From Escherichia coli (GTDB lineage: Bacteria > Pseudomonadota > Gammaproteobacteria > Enterobacterales > Enterobacteriaceae): a stretch of DNA of 4,051 bases. The position numbers and the translations under genes are program-made. Positions 1 through 4,051 of this stretch are shown piece after piece (the stretch's first letter is position 1; each line of letters starts with the position of its first letter). Under the pieces are notes generated by a model. That model had not been told where the DNA came from, did no database searches, and saw nothing but the letters and a program-made list of their open reading frames with translations. The stretch lies in NCBI RefSeq assembly GCF_024223415.1, contig NZ_CP100507.1. The stretch is one strand, 5' to 3'.

Positions 1-887
1 GGGCGTTAAGTGGTCGCGATTATATATCTAATGCCGCTGTTCATACTAGGAAAAGAACAGTTATATGTCTTGATATCACCAATTTTTATCCCAGCATTAG
101 TAAAAAAGATGTTTGTTCTATTTTTAAAAATTTAATGCGTTTTTCTCCTGATGTTTCTTTATGCTTAACGGAACTTGTGACGTTGAATAATAAGGTCCCT
201 CAGGGTGGGTGCTGTTCTAGTTATATTGCAAATCTTTTATTTTTTAATAGTGAGTATAATCTCTATAATAGATTGAAGTCTATGGGGCTTTCATATTCAA
301 GGCTTTTAGATGATATTACTATATCTTCTGATAAGGATCTTTCATCAGAGGAAAAAACAAAAGTAATAAAACTCGTTCACGGAATGGTGAATCAGTACAG
401 ACTTTCAATAAATGAAAGTAAGACAACGATAGAGCACTCAAAAGATTCGTCTTCTAAACTTAGTGTCACTGGGTTGTGGGTAAAGCATGGTGTTCCTAAG
501 TTAACAAAAGAAAATAGACGTTATATCAGGTACTTAGTTTATATATGTAAAAAACAAGGTGCTTATGAACGTCATACGAAAGAGTACCATGATTTATGGA
601 ATAGATGCTCTGGCAAGGTTGCTCAAATGTCGAGGCTTGGGCATGTCCAGGCGGTTGAATTGAGGGCGATTCTTTCTGAGATAATGCCAGTTTATGATGA
701 TTACAAGATATCTAAATTAAAGTTGATGGCTAAGCACTATCTAAATAAGTTTACGCCGCCTTTAACTGATGATCAGATTAGGAAAATAGATAGGATGCTC
801 TATGATTTTGATATAGTAGGGCGGACTAATAAGAATCTTGCAAAACTATATAGACGTAAGCTCGTGGCATTACTTCCAGATAGGTGA
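1..887 (+). CDS. Retron-type reverse transcriptase, C-terminal 294 codons plus stop (5' part at 3799..4051; the two join in frame if the molecule is circular, giving about 379 aa)
   Basis: The frame of the 135..887 ORF has no stop back to base 3. Translation from base 3: ALSGRDYISNAAVHTRKRTVICLDITNFYPSISKKDV... Contains NAAVH (NAxxH, nt 30-44), LDITNFYPSI (RT motif 1/2, nt 69-98), VPQGG (nt 195-209), an xxDD box reading LLDD (nt 303-314) and SVTGL with the retron-associated VTG triplet (nt 465-473). Stop TGA at 885-887. Confidence 0.9.
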   Translation, partial: ALSGRDYISNAAVHTRKRTVICLDITNFYPSISKKDVCSIFKNLMRFSPDVSLCLTELVTLNNKVPQGGCCSSYIANLLFFNSEYNLYNRLKSMGLSYSRLLDDITISSDKDLSSEEKTKVIKLVHGMVNQYRLSINESKTTIEHSKDSSSKLSVTGLWVKHGVPKLTKENRRYIRYLVYICKKQGAYERHTKEYHDLWNRCSGKVAQMSRLGHVQAVELRAILSEIMPVYDDYKISKLKLMAKHYLNKFTPPLTDDQIRKIDRMLYDFDIVGRTNKNLAKLYRRKLVALLPDR

Positions 888-891
888 TTAT

Positions 892-1095
892 ATGGAAAAT
901 GGATTTGTTAATTTTTATGACCATGTTAAAGGGTATGGCTTTATAAGGCGTGAGCGTGGACGTGATGTTTTCTTTCGGTATGATGATTTTTTGTTTTTAG
1001 GGCATGATGTCGATATATGTAAAGGTATTTTAGTTAGGTTTAAATTAGAAAAAACAGATAAAGGGTTTAAAGCTGTAGCGATTCAAAAGGTATAA
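892..1095 (+). CDS. Cold-shock-domain (CspA-like OB-fold) protein, 67 aa; probable retron accessory/effector protein
   Basis: ATG at 892, 4 nt after the RT stop, preceded by AGGTGA (882-887) as Shine-Dalgarno. Translation MENGFVNFYDHVKGYGFIRRERGRDVFFRYDDFLFLGHDVDICKGILVRFKLEKTDKGFKAVAIQKV carries the two cold-shock RNP motifs (KGYGFI like KGFGFI; VFFRY like VFVHF). The track ORF begins at a TTG at 838 overlapping the RT; the ATG at 892 with its SD is preferred. Confidence 0.85.
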   Translation: MENGFVNFYDHVKGYGFIRRERGRDVFFRYDDFLFLGHDVDICKGILVRFKLEKTDKGFKAVAIQKV

Positions 1096-1134
1096 CATCG
1101 TGGATGTGTCAGCTTGTTTTTATGATATGAGAAC

Positions 1135-1163
1135 TTGAGATCCTTTCTATCTCGTCGTAATCT
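1135..1163 (+). promoter_or_regulatory. RNA II (replication primer) promoter: -35 TTGAGA (1135-1140), 17-bp spacer, -10 TAATCT (1158-1163)
   Basis: Same hexamers and spacing as the pBR322 RNA II promoter as recalled (TTGAGA ... CGTAATCT); predicted start about 1171-1172. Confidence 0.7.
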
Positions 1164-1176
1164 CTTGCTGTGTAAA

Positions 1177-1201
1177 CGAAAAAACCGCCTTGCAGGGCGG
1201 T
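1177..1201 (-). terminator. RNA I rho-independent terminator (stem 1184-1189/1196-1201, loop ttgcag, T-run on the minus strand over 1177-1183)
   Basis: accgcc / ggcggt 6-bp GC-rich stem flanked by an A-run on plus (U-run in RNA I); equivalent to the pBR322 RNA I terminator hairpin. Confidence 0.6.
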
Positions 1202-1278
1202 TTTTCGAAGGTTCTCAGAGCTACCAACTCTTTGAGCCGAGGTAACTGGCTTGGAGGAGCGCAGTCACCAAAACTTGT
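1178..1278 (-). ncRNA. RNA I antisense copy-number control RNA (about 100 nt)
   Basis: Minus-strand start near 1278 (ACAAGTTTTGG, compare pBR322 ACAGTATTTGG) and end at the hairpin plus T-run at 1177-1201; fully complementary to the 5' end of RNA II as in ColE1. Confidence 0.7.
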
Positions 1279-1284
1279 TCTTTC

Positions 1285-1314
1285 AGTTTAGCCTTAACAG
1301 GCGCATGACTTCAA
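1285..1314 (-). promoter_or_regulatory. RNA I promoter (minus strand): -35 TTGAAG (1309-1314), 18-bp spacer, -10 TAAACT (1285-1290)
   Basis: Read on the minus strand: agccTTGAAGtcatgcgcctgttaaggcTAAACTgaaagaACAAG. Position matches the pBR322 RNA I promoter (TTGAAG ... TACACT). Confidence 0.6.
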
Positions 1315-1932
1315 GGCTAACTCCTCTAATTCGGTTACCAGTGGCTGCTGCCAGTGGCGATAAGTCGTGTCTTCTCGGTTTGGATTCAAGTCGATAGTTA
1401 CCGGATAAGGCGCAGCGGTCGGACTGAACGGGGGGTTCGTGCATACAGTCCAGCTTGGAGCGAACGACCTACACCGGGCCGAGATACCAACAGCGTGAGC
1501 TATGAGAAAGCGCCACGTTTCCCGAAGGGAGAAAGGCGGACAGGTATCCGGTAAGCGGCAGGGTCGGAACAGGAGAGCGCACGAGGGAGCTTCCAGGGGG
1601 AAACGCCTGGTATCTTTATAGTCCTGTCGGGTTTCGCCACCTCTGACTTGAGCGTCGGTTTTTGTGATGCTCGTCAGGGGGGCGGAGCCTATGGAAAAAC
1701 GCCATCGGCGCGGCCTTTGTCCCTGGCTTCGGCTTTTTGCTCACATGTTCTTTCCGGCGTTATCCCCTGATTCTGTGGATAACCGTATTACCGCCTTTGA
1801 GTGAGCTGACACCGCTCGCCGCAGTCGAACGACCGAGCGTAGCGAGTCAGTGAGCGAGGAAGCGGAAGAGCGCCTTATGTGACATTTTCTCCTTACGCTC
1901 CTCTATGCCGTTCTGCATCCTGTCCGGATGCG

Positions 1933-2127
1933 TTATATCCCGGTGCGATTTTCCGCTTCAAAGCGTGTCTGTATGCTGTTCTGAAGTTCTTCCGCGAGTT
2001 CGTGCAGCTTCTCACACATGGCGGCCTGTTCGTCAGCATCAAGTGCGTCCAGTTTTTCGAGCAGCGTCAGGCTCTGGCTTTTTATGAATCCTGCCATGTT
2101 GAGTACGGTTTGCTGCTGCTTGTTCAT
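1933..2127 (-). CDS. rop: Rop/Rom (RNA one modulator) copy-number control protein, 64 aa
   Basis: Translation MNKQQQTVLNMAGFIKSQSLTLLEKLDALDADEQAAMCEKLHELAEELQNSIQTRFEAENRTGI resembles ColE1/pBR322 Rop (MTKQEKTALNMARFIRSQTLTLLEKLNELDADEQADICESLHDHADELYRSCLARFGDDGENL, from memory). ATG at 2127-2125, stop TAA at 1935-1933, GGAG about 11 nt upstream, convergent with RNA II as in ColE1. The C-terminal third is divergent. Confidence 0.9.
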   Translation of the reverse strand: MNKQQQTVLNMAGFIKSQSLTLLEKLDALDADEQAAMCEKLHELAEELQNSIQTRFEAENRTGI

Positions 2128-2168
2128 CTTTCTGTTTTCTCCGTTCTTTCTGTCATCTGCGTTGTGTG

Positions 2169-2174
2169 ATTATA
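2169..2174 (-). promoter_or_regulatory. Candidate -10 element (TATAAT on the minus strand) for rop
   Basis: Perfect TATAAT on the minus strand about 40 nt upstream of the rop ATG; no convincing -35 hexamer at 16-18 bp spacing, so weak. Confidence 0.25.
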
Positions 2175-2339
2175 TCGCGTACCACTTTTCGACTGTTTTA
2201 CCGTCGGTATTCTGCTGTCTGACTCTTTGACGGGCATTTCTGTCAGACAACACTGTCACTGCCAAAAAACTGCCGTGCCTTTGTCGGTAATTTGAGCTTG
2301 CTGACAGGACAGGATGTGCAATTGTTATACCGCGCATAC

Positions 2340-2386
2340 ATGCACGCTATTACAATTACCCTGGTCAGGGCTTTGCCCCGACACCC
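2340..2386. other. bom/oriT-like remnant (ColE1 basis-of-mobility-like sequence) immediately upstream of mobC
   Basis: ccctggtcagggctttgccccgacaccc (2359-2386) resembles the pBR322 bom flank gactgggtcatggctgcgccccgacaccc as I recall it; the recalled ColE1 nick sequence (TATACTGG/CTTA) is not found intact. Confidence 0.35.
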
Positions 2387-2410
2387 ATGTCAGATACGGA
2401 GCCATGTTTT

Positions 2411-2734
2411 ATGACAAAACGAAGTGGAAGTAATACGCGCAGGCGGGCTATCAGTCGCCCTGTTCGTCTGACGGCAGAAGAAGACCAGGAAATCAGAAAA
2501 AGGGCTGCTGAATGCGGCAAGACCGTTTCCGGTTTTTTACGGGCGGCAGCTCTCGGTAAGAAAGTTAACTCACTGACTGATGATCGGGTACTGAAAGAAG
2601 TTATGAGACTGGGGGCGTTACAGAAAAAACTCTTTATCGACGGCAAGCGTGTCGGGGACAGGGAGTATGCGGAGGTGCTGATCGCTATTACGGAGTATCA
2701 CCGTGCCCTGTTATCCAGGCTTATGGCAGATTAG
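2411..2734 (+). CDS. mobC: MobC/MbeC-family relaxosome accessory protein (ribbon-helix-helix), 107 aa; alternative start ATG 2387 (115 aa)
   Basis: Translation MTKRSGSNTRRRAISRPVRLTAEEDQEIRKRAAECGKTVSGFLRAAALGKK... has the MobC/RHH signature (basic N-terminus, beta-strand RPVRLT, helices AEEDQEIRKRAAECG and TVSGFLRAAALG). GGAG at 2398-2401 lies 9 nt before the ATG at 2411; the upstream ATG at 2387 has no SD. Stop TAG at 2732-2734. Confidence 0.8.
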   Translation: MTKRSGSNTRRRAISRPVRLTAEEDQEIRKRAAECGKTVSGFLRAAALGKKVNSLTDDRVLKEVMRLGALQKKLFIDGKRVGDREYAEVLIAITEYHRALLSRLMAD

Positions 2735-2810
2735 CTTCCAGGGGAGAAAACTGTCGAAAACAGACGGTATGAACACTGTAAGCTCCCAAAGTGATCACCA
2801 CTCGCTTTCA

Positions 2811-2824
2811 TGCATAGCTATGCA
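2811..2824. promoter_or_regulatory. ARG-box-like 14-bp perfect palindrome within the cer accessory region (candidate ArgR site)
   Basis: tgcatagctatgca is its own reverse complement; position relative to the XerCD core matches the ArgR box of cer. Identity as an ArgR site is inference. Confidence 0.35.
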
Positions 2825-2898
2825 GCGAGCTGAAAACGATCCTGACGCATTTCCCCGGTTTTCTTAGGGTAAAACATCTCTTTTTGCAGTGTCTGTGT

Positions 2899-2923
2899 CA
2901 GAATCGCGCTGAGCGCGATTCTG
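2899..2923. repeat. 11-bp perfect inverted repeat / hairpin (cagaatcgcgc tga gcgcgattctg) abutting the XerC arm
   Basis: Seen directly; no downstream U-tract, so not a classical terminator. May belong to a cer-internal transcript (Rcd-like) or an accessory-factor site. Confidence 0.5.
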
Positions 2924-2958
2924 TGGTGCGTACAATTAAGGGATTATGGTAAATACAA

Positions 2959-3225
2959 TTGGTTAAATTACTATTGGTGAGAAATGAATATTTCAATAAA
3001 AACAATGACTTAAAAACCGTTGCTCGGTTTGACGGTAAAACCTTAAGAGATGCCTTTTCGAGAAAAATAGCGACTTTTGATGGCAAGGTTTTAAGGGATG
3101 CCTCTTTAAAAAAAGTAGCAACCTTTGACGGTCAGAATTTAAGAGATGCTAGTTCAAAAATTATCCTGAGTGCCGATGCTGAGGTTGGGATTGTTGTTAT
3201 GGCCTTTGTAGCTGAGTTGATTTGA
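2959..3225 (+). CDS. Hypothetical small protein with three tandem 16-aa repeats and a hydrophobic C-terminus; non-ATG start (TTG 2959, or TTG 2974 / GTG 2977)
   Basis: Translation ...TVARFDGKTLRDAFSRK IATFDGKVLRDASLKK VATFDGQNLRDASSKI ILSADAEVGIVVMAFVAELI. Differences between repeat copies fall largely on synonymous third positions (Ala gct/gcg/gca; Asp gac/gat; Gly ggt/ggc; Arg aga/agg; Lys aaa/aag; Thr act/acc), a coding-type pattern. No in-frame ATG and no clear SD; in-frame stop at 2950-2952 limits the 5' end. Confidence 0.5.
   Translation: MVKLLLVRNEYFNKNNDLKTVARFDGKTLRDAFSRKIATFDGKVLRDASLKKVATFDGQNLRDASSKIILSADAEVGIVVMAFVAELI
3019..3162 (+). repeat. Tandem direct repeat, 3 x 48 bp (units 3019-3066, 3067-3114, 3115-3162)
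   Basis: Conserved cores tttgacggtaaaaccttaagagatgcc / tttgatggcaaggttttaagggatgcc / tttgacggtcagaatttaagagatgct at exact 48-bp spacing. Confidence 0.85.
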
Positions 3226-3282
3226 ATCTCATGCTGCATACCTTTTAGCCTATCGCTGGCAGGATAAGGCGCTTTCTTGTTG

Positions 3283-3310
3283 GTGACAGAAAGATAAAAA
3301 ACTTTATAAT
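3283..3310 (+). promoter_or_regulatory. Sigma70-like promoter facing the retron: -35 GTGACA (3283-3288), 16-bp spacer, -10 TATAAT (3305-3310)
   Basis: Perfect -10 consensus and 5/6 -35 at canonical spacing; predicted start about 3317. Lies about 190 nt upstream of a1, so it may drive the retron ncRNA-RT-csp transcript, but no nearer promoter could be identified by eye. Confidence 0.4.
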
Positions 3311-3507
3311 AATCAGCGAAGCGGGCGAACCACGCCTGGCTCTCGCTCTTTAACAAATGGTTACGTGTATGTTGCGCAAGGAAACCGATGCCTTGTTTTT
3401 AAGGCGATCTCGCATGAGATCATGACCGGCCTGGCCGCTAATTAATGGTGAGAACGCCCCTGAGCGTGTATCAGCACTAAAAGAATAGCGACGATTGTCT
3501 GGCAATG

Positions 3508-3520
3508 TGAGTTAAAAGTC
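3508..3520. repeat. Retron a1 inverted repeat (left arm)
   Basis: 13-bp perfect inverted repeat partner of 3780-3792; does not extend on either side. Confidence 0.6.
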
Positions 3521-3594
3521 CCAAAGAGCCAATAGAGTTTTTCCTTGCTTTCCTACTGGTCTGGCAAAATTTCATAACCAATAGGAGTTGCATC

Positions 3595-3777
3595 ATGTTT
3601 ATTATCAACATCAACATTAACGTAACCAAGAGCTCTTCATCTTGTTCTGGAGACGGTCAGATGAAGAAAAAAAGAGAGGTTGGCTCTCTGGAGGCACTGA
3701 AAAAAACACAGTTTTTGTTTTCTATGTGCTTGATTATGTTTAAAGTAATAGATTACGTATCGAAACTTTTTAACTAA
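3595..3777 (+). CDS. Hypothetical 60-aa ORF lying entirely inside the a1-a2 (msr-msd) region; possibly not translated
   Basis: ATG at 3595 preceded by AGGAG (3583-3587) at 7-nt spacing; stop TAA at 3775-3777. Protein MFIINININV... is low-complexity and Lys-rich. Position inside the putative retron ncRNA argues that it may be fortuitous. Confidence 0.2.
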   Translation: MFIINININVTKSSSSCSGDGQMKKKREVGSLEALKKTQFLFSMCLIMFKVIDYVSKLFN

Positions 3778-3779
3778 TC

Positions 3780-3792
3780 GACTTTTAACTCA
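3780..3792. repeat. Retron a2 inverted repeat (right arm), 6 nt upstream of the RT ATG
   Basis: Exact reverse complement of 3508-3520. Flanked by a near-direct repeat actttttaact (3765-3775) / acttttaact (3781-3790). Confidence 0.6.
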
Positions 3793-3798
3793 AACATC

Positions 3799-4051
3799 AT
3801 GAATAAACCCAGGTTTAATGGAACTCCTGTTGCATCTTTGGATTCTTTATCTGCGATGTTAGGCATAGAAAGAAAAAGATTGGACTGGATAGTCAAGTCT
3901 GTATCGATGTCGTACAAGCAGTTTAAGGTTGAAACAGGGAAGAATAAAAAAGAAAGGCAAATTTTTGAACCCAAGAGATCTTTGAAAGGAATTCAAAAAA
4001 AAATAAATAAAGAGATTTTTGAGAAAATTGATTACCCTCATTATTTGCATG
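3799..4051 (+). CDS. Retron-type reverse transcriptase, N-terminal 84 codons (continues past the window end; see 1..887)
   Basis: ATG at 3799, open to the last base of the window. Translation MNKPRFNGTPVASLDSLSAMLGIERKRLDWIVKSVSMSYKQFKVETGKNKKERQIFEPKRSLKGIQKKINKEIFEKIDYPHYLH is colinear with the N-terminal region of retron RTs (RQIFEPKRSLKGIQ resembles the Ec86-type IYQPSRELKALQG segment as I recall it). No Shine-Dalgarno is evident, so the start is the first in-frame ATG after a2. Confidence 0.85.
   Translation, partial: MNKPRFNGTPVASLDSLSAMLGIERKRLDWIVKSVSMSYKQFKVETGKNKKERQIFEPKRSLKGIQKKINKEIFEKIDYPHYLH

Follow-up and report, generated by a model that had tools for sequence, protein, structure and literature searches.

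Does the 4,051-nucleotide (nt) stretch of Escherichia coli DNA considered here (contig NZ_CP100507.1 of assembly GCF_024223415.1; hereafter the window, always at its full length) represent a fragment or an entire replicon? The question is raised by its two ends, each of which lies within a gene for a retron reverse transcriptase (RT): the part coding for the N-terminal region of the enzyme runs to the last base, and the part coding for the C-terminal region begins at base 1. The original prediction, made from the letters alone, was that the window is probably a complete circular replicon linearised inside this gene. The analysis presented below indicates that it is almost certainly one complete monomer of a circular ColE1-type plasmid of 4051 base pairs (bp), whose arbitrary start falls inside the retron RT gene. 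On this reading, the contig represents a finished replicon, the RT gene of which is intact and has not been truncated.

An RT gene that closes across the ends of the record

The RT open reading frame (ORF) opens with the ATG at 3799, with an in-frame TAA stop upstream at 3775, and remains open as far as 4051, a distance of 253 nt that amounts to 84 codons and one base. From base 1 the frame continues without a stop to the TGA at 885-887. When base 4051 is joined to base 1, the left-over G is completed by bases 1-2 to give the codon GGG for Gly85, precisely the glycine codon at the junction that had been foretold. The joined ORF (3799..4051 plus 1..887, on the plus strand, as are all features below other than RNA I and rop) is continuous and in frame over 1140 nt, specifying 379 amino acids (aa), and it alone spans the 4051/1 junction among the ORFs of at least 30 codons on both strands. 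Its 5' part (3799..4051), comprising codons 1-84 and the first base of codon 85, is the same as the opening portion of the RT coding sequence (CDS) annotated in a related record, L001; its 3' part (1..887), from the last two bases of Gly85 to the stop TGA, is recognised by the RT_V and RVT_1 profiles and by the alignment to the Ec86 RT described below. The letters that meet at the junction are ...CATTATTTGCATG followed directly by GGGCGTTAAGTGG..., and the suffix/prefix overlap of the window ends is 1 nt only; hence, no assembler overlap has been left in place.

The joined protein behaves as a single RT in every profile comparison. Residues 1-373 match positions 1-374 of the 385 positions in the PADLOC profile RT_V in one stretch (E = 2.6e-127), the second-best PADLOC profile being RT_VI (E = 1.7e-72), and Pfam RVT_1 covers residues 49-242. 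In a phmmer search against the PDB chains, residues 8-270 align to the Ec86 RT with no gap around the junction, the stretch keifekidyphylhGalsgrdyisNAavH standing opposite rnildklssspfsiGfekhqsilNAtpH of Ec86. Gly85 is placed on a glycine of Ec86 and NAAVH on its NATPH, which agrees with the gapless Ec86-type alignment (Gly on Gly, NAxxH on NAxxH) that the original prediction had drawn. The translation as a whole carries the retron motifs NAAVH, LLDD (at the YADD position) and VTG.

One alternative is that the RT is really split or truncated, with sequence missing between 4051 and 1 and the in-frame fit having come about by chance. Its appeal is purely formal, in that arbitrary ends fit in frame one time in three. 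We regard it as exceedingly improbable: the match to the RT profiles passes over residue 85 of the joined protein in one stretch and without a gap, related records have an identical annotated RT of 379 aa, and the 400 nt centred on the junction are contiguous in 7 records (see below). The rotation and junction matches refute a split RT, provided that the source isolate does not stand apart from every one of its relatives.

Identity with closed plasmids of the same length

A megablast search of PLSDB and the complete RefSeq E. coli genomes returned three closed circular records of exactly 4051 bp that match the window, namely pCol (NZ_CP066843.1), pPSS-15_3 (NZ_AP027712.1) and pPSJ-42_9 (NZ_AP027661.1). 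All three are covered at 100%, with the match falling into two pieces because their linearisation points differ from that of the window. After rotation, 2 substitutions and 0 indels separate each of them from the window, the single-nucleotide polymorphisms lying at window positions 326 (synonymous in the RT), 2224 and 2293. They agree with the window in length, circularity, gene order and annotation, except that, unlike in the window, they show the RT as one CDS of 1140 nt, an intact annotation that results from their being linearised at other positions. The window is a rotation of these independent records, which bears out both the proposed completeness of the replicon and the estimate that about 4.05 kilobases (kb) make up the whole plasmid.

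The junction itself was examined with a 400-nt probe made of the last 200 and the first 200 bases of the window. Seven independent records, from E. coli, Salmonella and Shigella, contain this probe contiguously and ungapped with 99-100% identity, and it is found at 83% in a Klebsiella relative. Extra sequence or a frameshift at 4051/1 had been named beforehand as what would speak against circular closure; neither is seen in the related records in which the junction is contiguous. Near full-length copies of the window occur in 18 of the 5426 complete E. coli genomes, nearly all of them as plasmids of 4.0-4.2 kb. Taken together, the rotation match to the closed 4051-bp records and the contiguous junction identify the window as a complete monomer of a known plasmid.

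Some points weigh against this conclusion. Circularity is deduced here from identity with other closed records; the candidate promoter for the replication primer RNA II (1135..1163; see below) falls below the threshold of a consensus promoter scan; and records of 8002, 11848, 28652 and 133820 bp hold 80-100% of the window sequence. These larger records, to which may be added one chromosome record with 65% of the sequence, would suit a window that is a repeat unit or segment of a larger molecule, be it a multimer, a Col-plasmid cointegrate, a large plasmid or a chromosomal integration. Such an origin is nevertheless very unlikely, as both ends of the window fit base-perfectly into one gene, it is exactly as long as three independent closed records of 4051 bp, and the full-length copies are mostly plasmids of the 4.0-4.2 kb class. 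A multimer or cointegrate in particular is disfavoured because the window ends are adjacent bases of the 4051-bp unit. We accordingly retain the complete circular monomer as the reading of the window.

A separate observation concerns a 5277-nt contig (L046; CAUABB010000120.1) from a metagenome-assembled genome labelled 'uncultured Oscillospiraceae', which contains a 98% identical copy of the plasmid and crosses the junction directly. The presence of an enterobacterial plasmid in a Firmicutes bin is probably due to a binning contaminant. We considered whether this contig is a simple 1.3x concatemer and rejected the idea, since the copy, a 98% relative, forms part of a longer contig.

A type V retron as cargo

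Judging by its profile matches, the cargo of the plasmid is Retron-Sen1 (Se72), a type V retron comprising a predicted promoter, a structured leader RNA some 475 nt long, the RT and a cold-shock-domain protein. The last of these is a 67-aa protein encoded by 892..1095, which starts 5 nt past the RT stop. It matches the NCBIfam equivalog NF038236 (retron_eff_Se72) with 85.2 bits against a cut-off of 82 and the PADLOC profile CSD_V with E = 3.4e-25, and RefSeq names it retron Se72 family effector (WP_000427298.1). The guanine-plus-cytosine content of the retron module is 35.7% versus 51% for the backbone, which fits acquired cargo. As a side observation, the catalytic box of the RT (window 316-330, residues about 190-194) reads LLDD as against the usual retron YADD; the type V RT of Halomonas likewise has LLDD, and this variant may be a type V signature.

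Retron-Sen1 is the reference for type V, with a cold-shock partner (PMC7736814), and is plasmid-borne, producing an unusual DNA in which no 2'-5' branch was detected (PMC6868368). It protects against one phage of a tested panel (bioRxiv 10.1101/2020.06.21.156273) and guards RecBCD, responding to lambda Gam or to the loss of RecB (bioRxiv 10.1101/2022.08.27.505566); activation by Gam or RecB loss has since been confirmed (bioRxiv 10.1101/2025.10.22.683967). The published picture is that of a retron that makes a 72-nt DNA and serves as an abortive-infection guard of RecBCD with lambda Gam as the trigger. The DNA product and the defence function of the retron in the window are taken from this literature and would apply to it by extension.

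The Se72 retron has reportedly been known since 2001 on a plasmid of about 4.05 kb with three essential ORFs, the Salmonella Enteritidis Se72 plasmid of Rychlik et al. 2001 (J Bacteriol 183:2852) being said to measure 4053 bp. The window plasmid resembles the Retron-Sen1 plasmid of Salmonella Enteritidis in being a small ColE1-type replicon of about 4.05 kb and in combining a retron RT and a cold-shock-domain ORF with an upstream ORF that has no assigned function. The PLSDB relatives from Salmonella measure 4050 and 4054 bp and have identities of 97.8-98.4%, and the window is the E. coli 4051-bp variant. Both plasmid and retron are already known, and the identification, correct as it is, is in this sense ordinary. 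Its wider meaning is that this plasmid is a natural high-copy and promiscuous carrier of an anti-phage retron in E. coli, Salmonella and Shigella.

Architecture of the leader RNA

Upstream of the RT, a predicted retron promoter (GTGACA-16 nt-TATAAT) lies at 3283..3310. With 11 matches to the 12 consensus positions, it scores higher than any other promoter-like site of the window, and it is also where the sequence starts to resemble that of the Klebsiella relative. The RT protein of that relative is 84% identical, and its leader, taken from the promoter to the RT start, is about 88% identical as against 81% for the RT DNA. The 5' arm of the leader RNA (3318..3507) is delineated by alignments, covarying pairs in the hairpin SL1 and the folds of 11 homologues. 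It contains SL1 (about 3322-3337), placed by these covarying pairs, an aligned CTCTTTAA motif (3346-3353), a hairpin with the stem GATCTC/GAGATC (3406-3421) and a variable long hairpin (about 3431-3492), which in the folds of the homologues emerges as the candidate msd.

Beyond the candidate msd hairpin comes the first copy of a short direct repeat, GTCTGGCAA (repeat 1, 3497-3505), which separates it from the arm a1 of an inverted repeat (TGAGTTAAAAGTC, 3508..3520). This arm is a 13-nt perfect complement of the arm a2 (GACTTTTAACTCA, 3780..3792), located 2 nt after the stop of a small ORF and 6 nt before the RT ATG. Lying between the two arms is a predicted hairpin (3546..3590), in which the anti-Shine-Dalgarno segment UCCUAC-UGGU pairs with the Shine-Dalgarno (SD) region ACCA-AUAGGAG (SD at 3583-3587), and the top of which holds the second copy of the repeat, GTCTGGCAA (repeat 2, 3559-3567). 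The hairpin is followed by a 60-codon ORF (3595..3777), for which the E. coli RefSeq records have no annotation. The inverted repeat 3508-3520/3780-3792 encloses the 60-codon ORF and not msr-msd alone. The leader RNA folds with z = -4.6. The position of arm a1 3' of the candidate msd differs from the canonical order a1-msr-msd-a2, and it fits the self-priming and the lack of a branching G reported for Se72.

Conservation of the leader across type V retrons

This layout was compared across 11 type V loci with RT identities down to about 40%. Relatives were obtained by tblastn of the RT against plasmids (Hafnia/Pectobacterium 60%, Edwardsiella 65% and Halomonas 42% RT identity) and by scanning species-representative genomes for the two-repeat DNA pattern, which yielded six further distinct loci combining an RT with a cold-shock domain (CSD), at 40-47% RT identity. 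The scan produced 114 genome matches, of which 7 are type V retrons, with about 67 matches expected by chance (an estimate); it also recovered a near-identical copy of the window plasmid. Matches in Enterobacter, Lelliottia, Kosakonia and Pragia (L026, L030, L064, L087, L090 and L077) were set aside as chance occurrences inside a conserved protein-coding gene (...FGLAFKPNIDDLRE...).

Across the 11 loci, the -10 box is conserved, and all of them possess the covarying 5' hairpin and a T-rich motif, which is CTCTTTAA in most and degenerate in the Shewanella group. The long candidate-msd hairpin varies in sequence and keeps its structure in 11 of 11. Two invariant copies of GTCTGGCA (GTCTGGCA(A) in the window) stand 59-67 nt apart in every locus, with arm a1 starting 0-2 nt after the first of them and pairing with an arm at the small-ORF stop. 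We scored this pairing by duplex folding within each locus, against shuffled sequences and against non-cognate partners. The a1/a2 duplexes reach -13 to -24 kcal/mol, values matched by 1% or fewer of the shuffles at each locus, and the mean arm-duplex energy is -18.5 kcal/mol for cognate versus -8.9 kcal/mol for non-cognate pairs; the helix is kept in the 11 loci with changed sequences. Likewise, an SD-masking hairpin, in which a pyrimidine stretch pairs with the SD sequence and the second repeat stands at the top, is predicted in all 11, the design being the same and the sequences different. RNAalifold, applied to an 11-sequence MAFFT alignment, recovered short helices only, because the long-range arms are not in register in the alignment.

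A small ORF inside the leader

In each of the 11 type V loci, a small ORF of 57-74 codons, with an ATG and an SD sequence, occupies the same place as the 60-codon ORF of the window; it was listed in the window and in loci L007, L010, L011, L012, L013, L043, L071, L092, L096, L106 and L110. The region is open in one frame only, with 2-11 stops in the other frames, and shuffling it gives rise to such an ORF in just 0.7-3.4% of trials per locus. The predicted small proteins have in common an N-terminus with an alternating hydrophobic pattern, a single invariant Asp and a C-terminus that is hydrophobic. For the 60-aa protein of the window, AlphaFold2 predicts a helix over residues 25-59, with a predicted local distance difference test score of 81-92 over residues 31-60. 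A protein search with the 60-aa sequence found 7 near-identical proteins only, a small yield that results from the ORF being rarely called, and it did not reach distant relatives. We consider it likely that the 60-codon ORF is a real gene.

A parallel with type VI retrons

The arrangement recalls the type VI retrons, among which Retron-Vpa2 has a hybrid RNA combining msr-msd with a translationally repressed small toxin (bioRxiv 10.1101/2025.10.22.683967) and Retron-Sen3 similarly joins a hybrid RNA with a small toxic protein (10.64898/2026.04.27.721009). The RTs of types V and VI both belong to clade 3. Their leaders are of about 470 nt and present a (C/T)TCTTT(A/G)A motif after a 5' hairpin, as well as two short direct repeats, of which one adjoins the msd and the other precedes the small ORF by 36-45 nt. 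In both, the ribosome-binding site lies in a stem-loop, the small ORF specifies a hydrophobic C-terminal helix, and a long-range inverted repeat closes after the small ORF. The combination of SD hairpin and repeat in type V parallels the riboregulator proposed for Retron-Vpa2. Two type VI loci that we inspected (L014 and L015) display the 5' hairpin together with (G)TTCTTT(A/G)A, and direct repeats whose spacing from the small-protein start is similar.

The two types also differ. The type VI partner is a Cro/C1-type helix-turn-helix (HTH) protein encoded before the RT (small protein-HTH-RT in L014 and L015), whereas the type V partner is a cold-shock-domain protein encoded after it; no HTH gene is present among the window ORFs, and the type V order is ORF-RT-CSD. 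A further point of difference is that Se72 makes detectable DNA constitutively. A MAFFT alignment of the type V small protein with two type VI small proteins displays weak C-terminal resemblance only, and with these two type VI sequences no demonstrable sequence homology was found between the small proteins of the two types.

By analogy with type VI, we tentatively suggest, as a possibility that we hold at somewhat less than even confidence, that type V retrons including Se72 might be four-part systems in which a hybrid RNA carries both the template and a masked gene of ~60 aa that is opened by the complementary DNA (cDNA). Under such a scheme, the 3' inverted-repeat arm that follows the small ORF would anneal beside repeat 1 and prime cDNA synthesis; priming by the 3' arm is also reportedly what the title of Pilousova & Rychlik 2011 suggests. 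Synthesis would start by copying repeat 1, with the 5' end of the Se72 DNA predicted to lie opposite 3507, and this 5' end, TTGCCAGAC, would be complementary to repeat 2, which lies in the hairpin predicted to hide the SD sequence of the small ORF. Accumulating DNA, for example when Gam blocks RecBCD, could then open the hairpin and allow the small helical protein to be made. The toxin would be this small protein, acting alone or with the cold-shock protein now annotated as 'the effector'.

If the small ORF is functional, the two-protein definition of type V (Mestre 2020, PADLOC, NCBIfam) would be incomplete, and the effector label of the Se72 cold-shock protein would need re-testing. Within the literature library searched, we found no paper extending the small-protein idea to type V retrons, and the small-ORF observation, together with the two repeats and the masking hairpin, may be new.

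The ColE1-type backbone

The remainder of the window supplies the replication and maintenance functions. Every element named in the original prediction, that is, the origin, RNA I and RNA II, rop and cer, is recovered by Rfam, alignment to ColE1 or BLASTP; the prediction had been silent on a small MobA gene, on the leader RNA and on the identity with the Se72/Sen1 plasmid. The ColE1-type replication region, with the RNA II primer and the origin (1134..1898), is 83.8% identical over 798 nt to ColE1 604-1395. Within it, the antisense copy-number regulator RNA I (1176..1276, minus strand) matches the full-length Rfam model RF00106 with 94.6 bits against a gathering score of 47 (E = 1.3e-17). The candidate RNA II promoter mentioned above, read from the sequence as TTGAGA-17 nt-TAATCT within the ColE1-homologous block, is one that we take to be the counterpart of the pBR322/ColE1 RNA II promoter. 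From its position, RNA II would start near 1171. In ColE1, the distance from the RNA II start to the origin follows a 555-nt rule, and measured by this distance the transition from RNA to DNA would fall at about 1715-1730.

The gene rop (1933..2127, minus strand) encodes a 64-aa protein that BLASTP aligns to ColE1 Rop with 64% identity (E = 1e-24) and that RefSeq likewise names Rop; no Rop model matched it among the NCBIfam profiles. No Rep-family match was found among the window ORFs tested. RNA II from about 1171 would be expected to prime replication near 1715-1730 with no plasmid-encoded protein, and RNA I (1276..1176) together with Rop would limit the copy number of this high-copy plasmid. 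The description of the window as a self-sufficient ColE1 replicon is, as far as its predicted elements go, right in the usual sense of the term, in which the host DNA polymerase I, RNase H and XerCD act on it.

The cer-type multimer resolution site (2735..2954) ends in a 30-nt XerC/XerD core (2925-2954) identical to ColE1 3909-3938. Its accessory region, which takes in some 190 nt ahead of the core, is about 60% identical to that of ColE1 (161 of 270 columns identical), and the aligned part includes a TGCATAG-TAT-CA box that is a candidate ArgR box at about 2811-2826. A full-text literature search with the core string returned unrelated primer matches only. Through cer, the host XerCD would resolve multimers of the plasmid.

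Of the mobilisation functions, the window holds a small accessory gene of the MobA/NikA type (2411..2734), which matches NCBIfam NF041264 (MobA) with 113 bits against a cut-off of 80; there is no relaxase-sized ORF in the window ORF list. This MobA is the leftover of a mobilisation module that is devoid of its relaxase. In PLSDB, these plasmids are classed as 'mobilizable, relaxase MOBF', despite there being no relaxase-sized ORF. A further side observation is the string GGCTTTGCCCCGACACCC at 2367-2384, within the interval 2128-2410 between rop and mobA, which resembles the bom/oriT stretch GGCTGCGCCCCGACACCC of pBR322.

As a whole, the backbone resembles ColE1 (NC_001371) most closely in its RNA I/RNA II/origin region (84%) and in Rop and the cer core with the identities given above. 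It differs from ColE1 in having neither the colicin, immunity and lysis genes nor the mbeA-D relaxase module, in carrying the retron in the cargo position, and in a different arrangement of rop and mobA.

A repeat-containing ORF and annotation artefacts

Between cer and the retron promoter lies an 88-codon ORF (2959..3225; hypothetical protein WP_224471576.1) with three 48-nt tandem repeats (3028-3171), which correspond to repeats of 16 aa (FDGK-LRDA...) followed by a hydrophobic tail. It has no family match in NCBIfam or PADLOC. It is missing from the Klebsiella relative, and plasmid variants of 4148 bp have another ORF in its place.

Two other records, NZ_CP130128.1 (L006) and NZ_MZ098225.1 (L011), are also linearised inside the RT gene. 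The position of the record start has consequences for annotation: genes that run across it are dropped by gene callers and by the PLSDB gene table, as in NZ_CP130128.1. In the gene tables of both records, the RT is either absent or broken up, with a 'hypothetical protein' as the result, which is the artefact also seen in the window.

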